From: Dehalococcoidia bacterium
GTDB taxonomy: Bacteria; Chloroflexota; Dehalococcoidia; SM23-28-2; RBG-16-64-32
DNA: 64,000 bases
Direction of reading: 5' to 3'
Assembly: GCA_963665775.2 (NCBI GenBank)
Contig: CAXXTF010000002.1
Span: 480,001-544,000 of the forward strand
The notes beneath the pieces were generated by a model that worked only from the letters and a program-made list of their open reading frames with translations, did not search any database and was not told the origin of the DNA. The position numbers and the translations under genes were made by a program. This document shows, piece by piece, positions 17,559 to 22,190 of the stretch (the stretch's first letter is position 1; the number at the start of each line of letters is the position of its first letter).

Positions 17559-18140
17559 GTGAGGCCTGACGGAGGCGCTCACGCGGAGCGCTCGCTGGTA
17601 GATTCCGCCCGAGAGGGTGACGAAGCGGCGCTCTCCGAACTCTACAATCTCTACTTCCCCCGGATATATCGTTACATCCTTGCCCGCACGGGCAACACAT
17701 ACGACGCCGAGGACCTGGCGGAAGAGGTATTTATGCGCATGCTGGCTGCCATTGAGCGGTTCGAGTGGCGAGACGCTCCTTTCTCCGCTTGGCTGTTCCG
17801 GATCGCGCACAACGCCGTGATCAGCCAGCGGCGACGGGATGGCGCCCGCGGCCCATCGGCGCCGTTATCGGAGAGCTTACCCATGAACTCGCTGGGACCA
17901 GAGGAGTTGGTGGAGAAGCGAATGGCTCTTAACGAGATCATGCGGGCGGCCGAGACGCTGCCGGATGCTCAGCGCCAGGTAATCTCGCTGCGTTTCGCGG
18001 CCGGGCTTTCGGTAGCGGAGACAGCACGGGTTATGAATAAGGGCGAGGGGAACGTAAAGGTAATACAGCACAAGGCGATCGTCAAACTGAGGGAGATGAT
18101 GGGGCAGAGGCCCAGGGTTCATGAAACCAAGAAGTCTTGA
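17559..18140 (+). CDS. ECF RNA polymerase sigma factor
   Basis: Region 2 ([20 protein letters not shown]) and region 4 ([21 protein letters not shown]); SD GGGAGG. Confidence 0.95.
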
Positions 18141-19137
18141 ACAGATTCTTGAAGAGTGTCTGTCGGCCTATCTCGAAGGGCGGCGAGGCATCAATGAGAG
18201 TCTCGCTCTCTATCCCGGCTTGGCCGAGGAGCTGGAACCGCTCCTCAGCACGGCGGTCGAGATAGCCGCCCGCGTTGACTATGGGGAGCCCCCGGCGGCG
18301 TTCCAAGAGCAACTACGAGAGCGGTTCCTGATCGCCGCGGCGACGCGCCGTCGGGAGCGGATGCGGGAGCGGAAACCGGTCGCGGCTCAATCGGGATGGG
18401 GCTGGCGGTTCAGGAGCACCTGGTCCCTGGCTGCCGGGGCCACTATAGCGGTCATCGTGGCACTGACGCTGGGCGGCATGGCCTTGCTCCGCGATGGTGA
18501 TGACGGGCCGGGTGGCGTGATCGTAGAGCTGGTGCCTACACCTTCGCCTGCAGCCGAACCAACGGCTGCCCCTTTCGCCGTGGCGGACATCACCTCTCAG
18601 CTGGAGAAGGCGCGAAGTGACCTGGCGGCGCTGCAGGCAGTGTTGGATCGAGGAGACCCTATCGAATCGGGAGAGATCGGCGCCCTGAAGGACAGCACAC
18701 AGGAGATAGTCGATCAGCTGGCCGGCGCCCCCTCGGTCCTAGAGGCGGCCTTGGGCGAAGATGACAAGGAGGCGCTAGCCTCCGTTATCAGTGACGAGTA
18801 CAAGCTGCTATCGTCGCTCGACGAAGCTGAGCTCTCGGAGGGAGAGCTCGCTGATGTGGAGGAGGCGCTGGCGCTCACCGAGGAGCTAGCCAGGAAGCTA
18901 GGCGTGCCTCTCCTAACGCCGACGCCGGAACCGACGCCTACGCCCACGCCAACCGCGACGCCCGAGCCTACACCTACACCTACCCCGACACCCGAACCGA
19001 CTTCAGAGGTTACGCCCACACCGGAGCCGGAGCCGACGCCCTCACCTACGCCGGCGCCGACCACGGAGCCCGAGGTCACACCATCGAACGCCGCGCCAGG
19101 GGCTGTACTGTTTGACACAGTCGGCGAGCAGTCATAG
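18121..19137 (+). CDS. Putative anti-sigma factor (cytoplasmic helical N-terminus, one TM, extracellular helical domain, PT tail)
   Basis: Overlaps the sigma stop. N-terminus LEECL...G...ESLA.YP..AEEL.PLL is typical of Chloroflexota sigma-linked proteins. Confidence 0.8.
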
Positions 19138-19152
19138 GTTTGACTGCCCGAT

Positions 19153-19941
19153 ATGGCTGAATTAACCCTGTCGGAAGCCGCAGCACGATTCGCAGCTAGC
19201 TTGAGGGATGACGCTCCCGCCTCCACGGCGGTCGTAGTGAACCGGTTCGTGCGATGGTATGGCCCCGACCTCCCGTTAAGCCAACTGCGCGGTCATCAGG
19301 TTTCCCTCTACGCGGATGTCCTGGGCGCAGCCGCTACCGAGGCGAACCGTCGCGCGGACCAGGTAAAGTCCTTCTTGGCCTATCTCAAGAAGGAGGAGCT
19401 GCTAGCAGCAAACCTGGCGCCGCACCTGCGGTTGCGCAAGGCCGGCAAGGCCAAGAAGGGGACAGAGGGCCCATCTCAGGCGACGGTGAAGCTGACCCGT
19501 GAGGGGGAAAGGGCGCTACAAGCCGAGCTGGAGATGCTGGTCGAGCAGCGAGTCGCGGTCCGTCACGATATTCGACTCGCGATGGCGGACAAGGATTTCC
19601 GAGAGAACTCTCCGCTCGATGCTGCCAAGGAGAGGCAGGGCCACATTGAGGCGCGAATCCGGGATCTGGAGGGGACGCTGAGAGGTGCGGCGGTGGTAGA
19701 TGAGGCGGGCCAGGACGGCCGTATACGGGTAGGGAGCACGGTAGTGGTGAAGAACCTGAAAACCGAAACTGTGACGCGCTATACGATTGTGGGGCCGAAG
19801 GAGACGAACGCCGCCGACGGCAAGATATCAAGCGAGTCTCCGGTTGGTAAAGCCCTGTTGGAGCGTGGTGCCGGGGACGAGGTGCAGGTTTCGGCTCCGG
19901 CAGGGGCGTTGCGTATTCGGGTGGAGGAGGTCGAGGGCTAA
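19153..19941 (+). CDS. greA: Transcription elongation factor GreA with ~105-aa N-terminal extension
   Basis: LTREG...L..EL..L, A.A..DFRENS..DAAKE.Q, YTIVGP.E..AADGKIS.ESPVGKALL. Confidence 0.92.
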   Translation: MAELTLSEAAARFAASLRDDAPASTAVVVNRFVRWYGPDLPLSQLRGHQVSLYADVLGAAATEANRRADQVKSFLAYLKKEELLAANLAPHLRLRKAGKAKKGTEGPSQATVKLTREGERALQAELEMLVEQRVAVRHDIRLAMADKDFRENSPLDAAKERQGHIEARIRDLEGTLRGAAVVDEAGQDGRIRVGSTVVVKNLKTETVTRYTIVGPKETNAADGKISSESPVGKALLERGAGDEVQVSAPAGALRIRVEEVEG

Positions 19942-19962: not shown

Positions 19963-19994
19963 AGAGTCTGCCCAGGGGGCAGGCTCTTTTGTTT
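19963..19994 (+). terminator. Intrinsic terminator after greA
   Basis: AGAGTCTGCC-loop-GGCAGGCTCT followed by TTTGTTT. Confidence 0.75.
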
Positions 19995-20083
19995 CCTACC
20001 GCTGAGGGCGAGGGGAGGGAGTCGTCGGTGAGGGCGGCTTCGTGAAGAGAATCCGGCGCTGTTGCCTGGGCGTATCCTCTATA

Positions 20084-20185: not shown

Positions 20186-21421
20186 GTGAAAGTGTTGCTG
20201 ATGGATGCATCGAGAATGGTGCGGAGGCTAGTCTTCCTGGCGCCGGTGGCAGCGCTGGTGACAGCAGCCTGTCTGGGAGCTGGGGCGGGTGACGGCGACT
20301 CCGCCACTCCTCCTACGGACGAGGCTGGGAGTACGGAGAAGCCGACAGTGGTGGGCATACCGCCTGTGGTGGGCTGGGCCACGGACTGGACGAAGAGCAG
20401 CATCGATCTGAGGGAGCTGATCCTGGGCCTCCGTGCTCCAGACCCGCGAGATCTCATCTCGCCTCTGGACGCACCTACCTTTGAAACGGTAGAAGAGGCG
20501 TCCCAGTGGCTGGCGGATCGGGAGCCGGTGCTGCGGCTGGAGTTGGCTGGTGAGGTGCGGGCCTATCCCCTGCAGATCCTGACCAGGCACGAGATCGCGA
20601 ACGACCAGGTGGGAGATATCCCCATAGCCGTCACCTATTGCCCTCTGTGCAACAGCGCCTTGGTGTTCGAGCGCACGGTGGACGGGCGGGTGCTGCGGTT
20701 CGGCGTGTCCGGGTTGTTACGCAAGAGTGACCTGGTGATGTGGGACCGACAGACGGAGTCGCTGTGGCAGCAGATCACCGGCGAAGCGATCGTGGGCGAG
20801 CTGACCGGCACGCAACTTGAGTTCGTGCCGTCGTCGATCATCCGTTGGTCGGAGTTCAAGGAAAGCTTCCCTGATGGGCAAGTGCTCTCACGGAACACGG
20901 GCTTCCCACTCGCTTATTACAACCCCTACGTCGGCTACGACCAGGGCCGGATGGGCGCCTTCTTGTTCGACGGCGAGATCGACGAGCGCTTTCCGGCGTT
21001 CGAGCGGGTTGTGGGCCTGAGGGTAGGGGACACGACGAAGGCGTACCCCTTCAGCACTATCTCCGGGGAGCGCGCGGTCAACGACGACGTGGCCGGACAG
21101 CCCGTCCTGGTGTTATGGGGGGCCGAGGACACGGCCTCCGCTCTCGATAGCAGCGATATCGCCGAGGGCCGGTCAGTGGGGGTCGGGGTGGCCTACCTGC
21201 GGACGATGGAAGGCCAGCTGCTTACCTTCAAGGCTAACGGAGGCGACACCTTCGTGGACCTGGAGACGGGTACCACCTGGGACCTGCTGGGTAGGGCGAT
21301 AGCAGGGCCCCTGGAGGGGAAGCAACTGACAGCAGCGGTCCACACCAACGAGTTGTGGTTCGCCTGGGCTGCATTCAACCCGAACTCACCCGTGTACGGA
21401 GACGAGACGGCCAACACCTAG
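20186..21421 (+). CDS. DUF3179-domain lipoprotein
   Basis: Lipobox VTAAC, RAYPLQILTRHEIAND, TYCPLCNSA, FGVSGLL..SDLVMWDRQTESLWQQITG, WFAWAAF.P. Confidence 0.92.
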   Translation: MKVLLMDASRMVRRLVFLAPVAALVTAACLGAGAGDGDSATPPTDEAGSTEKPTVVGIPPVVGWATDWTKSSIDLRELILGLRAPDPRDLISPLDAPTFETVEEASQWLADREPVLRLELAGEVRAYPLQILTRHEIANDQVGDIPIAVTYCPLCNSALVFERTVDGRVLRFGVSGLLRKSDLVMWDRQTESLWQQITGEAIVGELTGTQLEFVPSSIIRWSEFKESFPDGQVLSRNTGFPLAYYNPYVGYDQGRMGAFLFDGEIDERFPAFERVVGLRVGDTTKAYPFSTISGERAVNDDVAGQPVLVLWGAEDTASALDSSDIAEGRSVGVGVAYLRTMEGQLLTFKANGGDTFVDLETGTTWDLLGRAIAGPLEGKQLTAAVHTNELWFAWAAFNPNSPVYGDETANT

Positions 21422-21677: not shown

Positions 21678-22190
21678 CTACTCGACGATGACGGTGCCGG
21701 TCATCTCGGTGGGGTGAAAGTCACATCGGAAATCGAAGGTGCCAGGCTCCTCAGGTGCGGTCCAAGTGAGGACGGCGCTGTCACCGGGACTGAGGGCGGC
21801 GGGGTCTGAGCACGGTTCGTCGCCGCCGACTTCGCACAATGTGGCGTCGAATGTATTGTCGGTGCCTGCAATGTGCATGTTGTGCAGGGACTGGCCGTTG
21901 TTCGTGAGGTTAAAGGTTAGTTGCTGGCCGGGGCTGACGGTGAACTCGTCGGCCTCGAAGAAGTTGTCGCCCTGCTACACATCGAAAGTGGCGGGCCCAG
22001 CCGGTGTCGGCGTAGCGGTGGCGGCCGGTGTGGGTGTCTCGGTGGGCGTTGGCGTCGCCGTGCTGGTCGGTGTCCCGCCGTCTCCGTTATCGTCGCCGCC
22101 ACAGGCGGCGGCCACGAGCGCGAGGGCGAGGATAACGATGGCGGGGATGAGGAAGCTCCTCAGCCTACGGTCGGCTATTGGTTTGGGCAC
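21678..22190 (-). pseudogene. Cupredoxin (type-1 copper) lipoprotein interrupted by one in-frame TAG at 21975-21977
   Basis: Lipobox VAAAC and PT linker, then ATFDV*QGDNFF...NNGQSLHNM...FRCDFHPTEMTGTV, all in one frame. Confidence 0.8.

Follow-up and report, generated by a model that had tools for sequence, protein, structure and literature searches.

In the textbook view, Gre factors diffuse freely and reach RNA polymerase through its secondary channel alone. A GreA of different build is encoded in a 64,000-nucleotide stretch of the genome of a Dehalococcoidia bacterium (contig CAXXTF010000002.1, positions 480,001 to 544,000; hereafter the window). At 19153-19941 on the plus strand lies a gene whose product carries, in front of GreA, a domain that is very probably of the core-binding (SAM-like) type seen at the N terminus of tyrosine recombinases. 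Longer GreA proteins occur in Chlamydia as well as in spirochaetes (in NCBIfam, NF004969, 'transcript cleavage factor/unknown domain fusion protein', and NF011309), and there, too, GreA forms the C-terminal part of a longer protein. Both models match only the GreA part of the window protein (positions 556-702 in a profile of 718 and 760-888 in one of 906), and the extensions of Chlamydia and spirochaetes comprise 550-750 residues and are unrelated, whereas here a single domain of 96 residues with an identifiable fold is present. A core-binding-like domain without the catalytic half of a recombinase is found in FliZ of E. coli, which, according to the available text of PMC3367168, binds DNA and acts on transcription; FliZ is a stand-alone repressor on promoter DNA, whereas in the window protein a secondary-channel factor is the fusion partner. 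Recombinase DNA-binding modules have also been reused in phage regulation by MrpR (8a0a) and SroF (9rd5), which the structural comparison program VIA-align matched to our domain with Z 7.1-7.4; according to their entry titles these are DNA-bound regulators, and the matched chains are of recombinase size (317-320 residues). No description of a fusion of GreA with a core-binding domain was found in the literature, in a collection that omits most subscription journals, and the fusion is apparently undescribed. New here are the genome survey, an independent profile test of the fold, a paralogue without the catalytic tip, the link to Dehalococcoides mccartyi and the recognition of shortened reference entries.

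The gene is one open reading frame (ORF) with an ATG start that encodes 262 amino acids plus a stop codon. An earlier reading of the DNA letters, hereafter the original prediction, had proposed this ORF and quoted parts of its product, and both agree with the ORF list and the translation. As judged from the translation, the Pfam GreA domains and a full-length AlphaFold model, the protein has three parts: a 96-residue N-terminal domain (N-domain, residues 1-96, 19153-19440), a disordered, basic and sequence-variable linker (residues 97-111, 19441-19485) and a complete GreA. GreA starts with its coiled coil (residues 112-181, 19486-19695; helices 116-145 and 153-177), recognised by Pfam as GreA_GreB_N (PF03449, residues 113-181, 61.9 bits versus a cut-off of 24.5), and ends with the globular C-terminal domain (residues 182-262, 19696-19938; GreA_GreB, PF01272, residues 187-261, 81.7 bits versus a cut-off of 26.9). 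Canonical GreA of E. coli (PDB 1grj) aligns with residues 112-262 over the full length (E = 1.5e-17), and domains and tip acids are the same; the difference is 111 extra N-terminal residues here, which make up a folded domain and a linker. NCBIfam GreA models likewise span residues 109-261 end to end. The cleavage activity of E. coli GreA resides in D41 and E44, according to the available text of PMC7527559. In the alignment to 1grj these residues correspond to D148 and E151 in the coiled-coil tip, DKDFREN (residues 146-152, 19588-19608), and D146, D148, E151 and N152 are invariant in 55 sequences. An intact GreA with acidic tip, preceded by a Lys-rich linker (it reads AGKAKKGTEG), is what the original prediction had described. 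The recombinase catalytic domain PF00589 was not matched by Pfam in the 262-amino-acid protein, the remainder of which is GreA; therefore, the protein is not a recombinase. The full-length AlphaFold model has a mean predicted local distance difference test score (pLDDT) of 87.6, with values below 50 at residues 98-107, and a predicted template modelling score (pTM) of 0.49. Since the linker is of such low pLDDT and the pTM of the whole model is low, the model is one of two well-folded modules on a flexible string, without a predicted fixed contact between them.

The N-domain itself was modelled with confidence by AlphaFold2 from an alignment of 45 N-domains (A2), with a pLDDT of 87.2 and a pTM of 0.78. 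Four helices are predicted (6-16, 24-36, 47-57 and 62-80). W35 is invariant and F32, G37, Y53, F74, L88 and H91 are nearly invariant in the A2 and A3 alignments. With this model as query, a Foldseek search against the PDB listed tyrosine-recombinase domains of the N-terminal or core-binding kind in about the first 25 rows; the best match is 3nrw, a Haloarcula integrase (E = 6e-3, TM score 0.77), and Tn1549 Int, pi2 Int, lambda Int and XerD were also matched. VIA-align, which is independent of Foldseek, was run against 48,161 representative chains and gave the same family in all of its top 23 rows, with Z from 12.3 to 7.0, before the first unrelated chain appeared at Z 6.8. Again, 3nrw was first (Z 12.3, root-mean-square deviation (rmsd) 2.5, 95 aligned residues), and DNA-bound lambda Int (1z1b) reached Z 11.8 and XerD (1a0p) Z 10.4. 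Over the recombinase core-binding domains 3nrw, lambda Int (1z1b/2oxo), XerD (1a0p) and Tn1549 Int (6en2), the superpositions have Z 12.3-10.4 and an rmsd of 2.1-2.5 over 84-95 residues, and the helix-4 pattern R/K..V(R/K).F..Y is common to them and the N-domain. They differ from the N-domain in that here the catalytic domain is missing, the partner is GreA, and helices 1 and 2 are joined by a shorter loop. In the ESM Atlas, clusters of integrase SAM-like domains came first (0.97-0.94), with 'Integrase SAM-like N-terminal domain' on top at 0.97, and the ten best matches all fall into one clan.

However, it has to be considered that the resemblance to integrases is convergent, in which case the N-domain would be an unrelated four-helix bundle and its fold uninformative on function. 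Several results weigh in this direction and against any reading that builds on the fold. Residues 1-106 of the window protein match no Pfam family even at E <= 10, and the A2 profile found nothing relevant among PDB sequences, just a designed helical repeat at E = 8.3. The identity to the structural matches is 6-21%, the best Foldseek E value is just 6e-3, and in VIA-align a Z below about 13 can come from helix arrangements that are common in helical bundles, as helical models often reach such values by chance. For this last reason the assignment rests on the agreement of many lines and on no single score. Besides the uniform family in the top 23 VIA-align rows, followed by the gap in Z, and the ESM Atlas result, these lines are found at the level of sequence. 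Among the 45 members of A2, weak matches to Pfam SAM-like families recur at E <= 1: Phage_int_SAM_4 in 10, Phage_int_SAM_1 in 7, Phage_int_M in 2 and SAM_5 in 1; the best E values are 4.4e-4 for SAM_4 and 9e-4 for SAM_1, and the thresholds of the Pfam SAM-like families are not reached. NCBIfam gave a single faint match of residues 1-106, to XerC (E = 0.092). In other Chloroflexota genomes, the A2 profile also matched open frames of 300-430 amino acids with per-genome E values of 1e-9 to 1e-4. Eight of these weak matches were retrieved; six carry Phage_integrase and have Phage_int_SAM_1 exactly at the matched place, one has the catalytic domain alone, and one is a 354-amino-acid GreA fusion. 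As a guard against circularity, 24 Xer-type N-domains (A4) were collected with Pfam PF02899 from the same genome and 20 relatives. Aligned against this independently chosen set, A2 gave a probability of 88.1% and E = 3.1e-6 over 84 columns in hhalign. PF02899 itself, searched over the genome of the window at E <= 1e-5, has 7 matches, and none of the 6 with listed places is at the long greA. The HHpred-type comparison and the combination of AlphaFold and Foldseek were the checks proposed in the original prediction for residues 1-105, and the four-helix fold of XerC, XerD and integrase N-terminal domains that it had seen in the extension is supported by them. We conclude that the N-domain has the fold of the tyrosine-recombinase core-binding domain, to which it is also related, remotely, in sequence; there is little reason to doubt the anatomy and the fold assignment, and convergence is very improbable. 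A 6.5-kb contig in IMG carries a split D. mccartyi gene for the long protein, whose 160-amino-acid N-terminal piece (P0135, P0131 for the two pieces) is named 'Site-specific recombinase XerD' and whose remaining 115 amino acids are named 'Transcription elongation factor'; the pipeline had thus given the recombinase label to a frameshift or split fragment.

The fusion is not confined to the window. A word-indexed search with residues 1-108 returned 119 protein clusters in which the N-domain is joined to GreA; nearly all have 255-276 amino acids and both GreA domains, and the named members are GreA of Dehalococcoidia or Chloroflexi. In the class Dehalococcoidia the N-domain is present in 337 of 401 sampled genomes (one of them, G244, unpublished), covering 197 of 223 genera; among the sampled genomes it was not found in two families, f11 (0/25) and f30 (0/11). 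Because the extension recurs with GreA in so many clusters and genomes, it is no chance open frame. Across the phylum Chloroflexota the A2 profile was positive in 129 of 401 sampled genomes, of which 51, as counted from the table (the unpublished G604 and G706 included), are outside the class at E <1e-12; in all ten retrieved from these 51 as a sample, GreA comes after the N-domain. When 185,579 species genomes were scanned by pattern, 565 confirmed relatives were obtained, the best 80 of which have Dehalococcoidia or Chloroflexota titles, except for two short contigs. These two (L109 and L114, 4.0 and 2.7 kb) encode a 49%-identical long GreA and are filed under Acidobacteriota and Promethearchaeota metagenome-assembled genomes, most likely as a result of mis-binning. 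An exhaustive HMMER search of 1.84 billion representatives gave 527 matches at E <= 1e-3, 331 of them at E <= 1e-10. The original prediction had suspected a lineage-wide trait rather than a single case, and this is indeed what the clusters, the class genomes, the further Chloroflexota and the 565 relatives reveal.

Among the 527 matches we also looked for the N-domain in other architectures. The 150 best were viewed, ten were examined with Pfam, and, judged from the protein sequences, no genuine second architecture was found among these ten candidates. P0140, P0150, P0188 and P0206 are partial sequences that extend into GreA_N, and P0277 is a complete fusion. Once the coiled coil has begun, P0141 and P0164 turn into low-complexity sequence, as after a frameshift; P0144 carries on as an unrelated coiled coil, and the gene calls of P0221 (Memo) and P0268 (thioesterase) appear to be chimeras or run-throughs. 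A longer version of the fusion does occur: L066 (G022:C7) encodes 354 amino acids, with an acidic extension of ~95 residues before the N-domain, and open frames of 340-360 amino acids that resemble it are present in a few other genomes of the class.

Conservation differs strongly along the protein. Pairwise identity among 55 full-length relatives averages 39.5% for the N-domain and 12.0% for the linker, against 53.7% for the coiled coil and 43.2% for the C-terminal domain of GreA; with 39.5 versus 43.2%, the N-domain is constrained about as strongly as the GreA C-domain. The stretch 93-111 has a median length of 19 residues and a median net charge of +5 in the same relatives, and the linker is, as far as these alignments tell, constrained in length and charge alone.

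This pattern bears on the question of where translation starts. One could imagine that the upstream 111 codons are non-functional and that translation begins at the internal Val or Leu of VKLTREG, so that a GreA of ~150 amino acids alone is made. Older reference entries of D. mccartyi do start internally (CAI82903.1 of strain CBDB1 with 170 amino acids; Swiss-Prot Q3Z8E7 of strain 195 with 156 amino acids), the codon of V112 in the window is GTG, and no clear Shine-Dalgarno sequence was read in the DNA ahead of the ATG at 19153. Against this stand the protein-level identity of the N-domain compared with that of the linker, a frame that is unbroken in every locus examined, and the current RefSeq models, in which GreA of D. 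mccartyi has 265-266 amino acids. Moreover, of 54 sequences 11 have a start-type codon at V112 and 10 have one at L114; the others have GTC, GTT, ATC, CTG and similar codons. Protein data from CBDB1 point the same way. Table 1 of PMC7918482, as far as the source was available, lists acetyl-K17 of GreA (cbdbA743) in the acetylome. The numbering fits the 170-amino-acid entry, so that the acetylated residue belongs to the linker and not to the N-domain: K17 is the residue just before the equivalent of V112. From this position we infer that GreA of CBDB1 extends upstream of the internal start. The start at VKLTREG, named in the original prediction as a finding that would speak against a fusion, is not favoured in view of the few relatives with a start-type codon at V112, and exclusive production of the short protein is hardly credible. 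A minor internal isoform may exist alongside the long form.

The genome of the window has a second match to PF01272, a GreA-like ORF of 155 amino acids that lies outside the window (L001:1255-1722, about 1,155,948-1,156,415 of G000:C2, plus strand). In the alignment to 1grj this paralogue has G at the position of D41 and N at that of E44; of the two reference proteins, E. coli GreA (E = 1.3e-24) is the nearer and Gfh1 (E = 1.2e-10) the more distant. Two copies are the rule in the class: PF01272 is present in 147 of 151 near-complete Dehalococcoidia genomes, and, as counted from the table, about 104 have two copies, 34 one, 9 three or more and 4 none. Besides the short paralogue in the genome of the window, 20 more were collected. 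In those that stand beside an N-domain form, the genome of the window included, D41 is kept in 1 of 15 and E44 in none; the E44 position holds N in nine cases, D in four and I or A in the other two. Of the six short copies in five genomes without a match to the N-domain, four show D at both sites; the remaining two read G/E and G/N. Thus, judging from the tip residues, the short GreA of many Dehalococcoidia genomes probably cannot stimulate cleavage and is possibly a cleavage-deficient regulator of the secondary channel. An active and a probably inactive channel factor in one genome is a likeness to Gfh1 of Thermus (2eul/3aoh) and to archaeal TFS4 (the available part of PMC5715097); this comparison concerns the 155-amino-acid paralogue, whose deficiency in cleavage is predicted from its residues.

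In a quick IQ-TREE analysis of the GreA part, 65 long and 21 short Chloroflexota forms are split by one branch with a Shimodaira-Hasegawa-like approximate likelihood ratio (SH-aLRT) of 100. The tree has no outgroup and gives no direction of the duplication; the split fits a single origin of the fusion. Two fusions from outside the class (L205 and L210, from G613 and G529) sit on a long branch (1.65) as a divergent sub-lineage, and their tip is the canonical-looking KDGDLRENAAYD and not DKDFREN. In three genomes (G055, G079 and G133) the long form is the sole match to PF01272, and the three proteins are identical to NCBI GreA of D. mccartyi (265-266 amino acids); another one (L176) is GreA of Dehalogenimonas sp. 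WBC-2 (270 amino acids). Because most of the short paralogues beside it are without the tip acids and the long form is the sole Gre factor in genomes of the D. mccartyi type, the long form is likely the working cleavage factor of the lineage and the only one in its smallest genomes.

What, then, does the N-domain do? Our preferred explanation, held tentatively and set somewhat below an even chance, is that the protein is the catalytic Gre factor of a Chloroflexota lineage with the N-domain as a DNA anchor. The coiled coil would enter the secondary channel of RNA polymerase as in other bacteria, D148 and E151 would help the active site of the polymerase to cut backtracked RNA, and the C-terminal domain of GreA would sit on the rim of the channel. 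The N-domain, on a tether that is flexible and basic, would then be placed outside the channel mouth and, by use of basic residues of helices 2 and 4 together with the basic linker, could grip duplex DNA near the polymerase. Anchoring of this kind would raise the local concentration of GreA or its residence time on elongation complexes, and it might favour the long form in the competition with the short, tip-less paralogue for that channel. That the ligand of the anchor is DNA is as tentative, if not slightly more so. Conserved basic positions are 31 and 34 in helix 2, 67, 72, 79 and 80 in helix 4, and 93, 95 and 96; R/K72 aligns with the invariant Arg of the 'vRSF' motif of Xer proteins. Helix 2 is the DNA-binding helix of integrases and FliZ, according to the available text of PMC3367168.

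Besides the points on the fold given above, the following speak against the explanation as a whole. The net charge of the N-domain is low, with a median of +1, a range of -3 to +6 and 0 in the window protein. Taken by themselves, the core-binding domains of recombinases bind DNA weakly. The N terminus of Gre factors lies at the channel mouth in Gre- and Gfh1-polymerase structures, and the geometry proposed here is taken from general knowledge of these structures. Finally, the GreA part narrowly misses the NCBIfam equivalogs (138.2 versus 145 for NF001263; 126 versus 139 for TIGR01462); the name of the long form in the databases is nonetheless GreA.

Since the charge of the N-domain is near neutral, docking to the polymerase stays alive as the main rival to a DNA anchor. 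The N-domain would then be a protein-protein module that holds on to RNA polymerase, or to a factor bound near the channel rim, and the higher affinity would let the catalytic Gre outcompete the tip-less short paralogue. Such competition would arise in most genomes of the class, where two Gre-type genes would share one channel and the short paralogue usually is without D41 and E44. The most conserved residues of the N-domain (F32, W35, Y53 and F74) are aromatic or hydrophobic; most of them probably belong to the core, and W35-Y36-G37 at the end of helix 2 could form a surface patch. However, all relatives of the fold with a solved structure are DNA-binding domains, the conserved basic residues are on those helices that make contact with DNA in recombinases and, as described in the part of PMC3367168 referred to above, in FliZ, and the N-domain is kept in genomes of the D. 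mccartyi type that have no short competitor. We regard protein docking as rather unlikely.

A ligand of yet another kind is conceivable. It might be RNA, nascent or backtracked, DNA in single-stranded or branched form at transcription-replication conflicts, or a protein of recombination or repair, and transcript cleavage would in this way be coupled to DNA transactions. The linker and the C-terminal edge of the N-domain are basic, core-binding domains do act on distorted or branched DNA, and the Holliday junction complex of lambda Int (1z1g) is among the matches. A conserved neighbour with a function in repair or recombination is missing, and the genes found upstream of the long greA in other genomes vary (DUF3786, FAD oxidoreductases, arginase, M50 peptidase, Thi4). 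This possibility is quite improbable.

In the window, the neighbours of the long greA are of a different kind. An ECF-type (extracytoplasmic function) sigma factor of 193 amino acids (17559-18140, plus strand; Sigma70_r2, Sigma70_r4, Sigma70_ECF) is followed by a membrane protein of 338 amino acids (18121-19137, plus strand) without a Pfam family. Its role as anti-sigma factor is inferred from its position; its C terminus is rich in Pro and Thr and contains a Pro/Thr/Glu repeat of ~70 residues. Only 15 nt separate this ORF from the ATG of greA. An intrinsic-terminator-like hairpin with a T-rich tail follows at 19963-19997 (plus strand), 22 nt past the stop codon of greA; its hairpin (19963-19987), an 11-bp stem followed by TTTGTTTCCT, is the only such site that a pattern scan returned between 17200 and 20300. 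The spacing and the lack of a terminator-like site before 19963 are as the original prediction had described them.

From this arrangement it was suggested that greA may be under ECF control. The long greA would be the last gene of a sigma/anti-sigma operon and be induced by envelope stress, irrespective of what the N-domain binds. Apart from the close spacing without a terminator-like site between 17200 and 19963, the same order of sigma factor, partner and long greA is found in 12 of 40 other loci, and the N-terminal 45-130 residues of the partner, its only conserved part, recur beside the sigma gene in these 12. In addition, metatranscriptome contigs cover parts of the sigma factor, partner and greA genes; one (19017-19187) runs across the junction of partner and greA and another covers 19452-19632. 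These come from four runs of one study, with 10 short contigs at a depth of 2-11, and the uncovered 19188-19451 and 19633 onward are uninformative. The junction contig is compatible with co-transcription and no proof of it, as carry-over of DNA is possible. Moreover, the synteny is limited to the family of the window (f1) and two neighbouring families (f4 and f6), the other 28 of the 40 loci are without the pair, and a sole catalytic Gre factor is unlikely to be expressed under stress alone. Hence, the upstream pair is a conserved feature of these three families; since the neighbours differ elsewhere, ECF control is no general property of the fusion, and even for the locus at hand an envelope-stress operon remains doubtful.

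Downstream of the terminator, at 20186-21421 (plus strand), a DUF3179 protein of 411 amino acids (Pfam E = 1.2e-97) is encoded, which has no counterpart in the 40 other loci, whose flanks extend no further than about 1 kb past greA. On the minus strand, 21678-22190 holds a pair of short, closely spaced ORFs that may be one split or mis-started gene. The product of 21975-22190 looks like a signal or lipoprotein sequence with a Thr/Pro-rich stretch, and the 66 amino acids encoded by 21678-21878 have a C...H...M spacing that we take to resemble a blue-copper (cupredoxin) site.

For practical purposes, the long form flags the short reference entries Q3Z8E7 (156 amino acids) and CAI82903.1 (170 amino acids), and proteomic studies of D. 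mccartyi that were searched against the old short models are blind to the N-domain. The fusion is conserved across the class and is the sole Gre factor of D. mccartyi, an organism used in bioremediation. A Gre factor with a DNA-binding-type domain of its own would, if this is true, represent a new delivery route for proofreading or anti-backtracking activity. It is tempting to go one step further and to speculate on a secondary channel served by two factors, a catalytic Gre that uses a recombinase core-binding domain, exapted for this role, to read or grip DNA, and an antagonistic tip-less paralogue, of which the streamlined genome of Dehalococcoides would keep just the DNA-anchored one. We consider this combination unlikely; if it were true, cleavage would be directed to polymerases that are held up at certain DNA sites or structures, for instance promoter-proximal pauses, roadblocks or replication conflicts.

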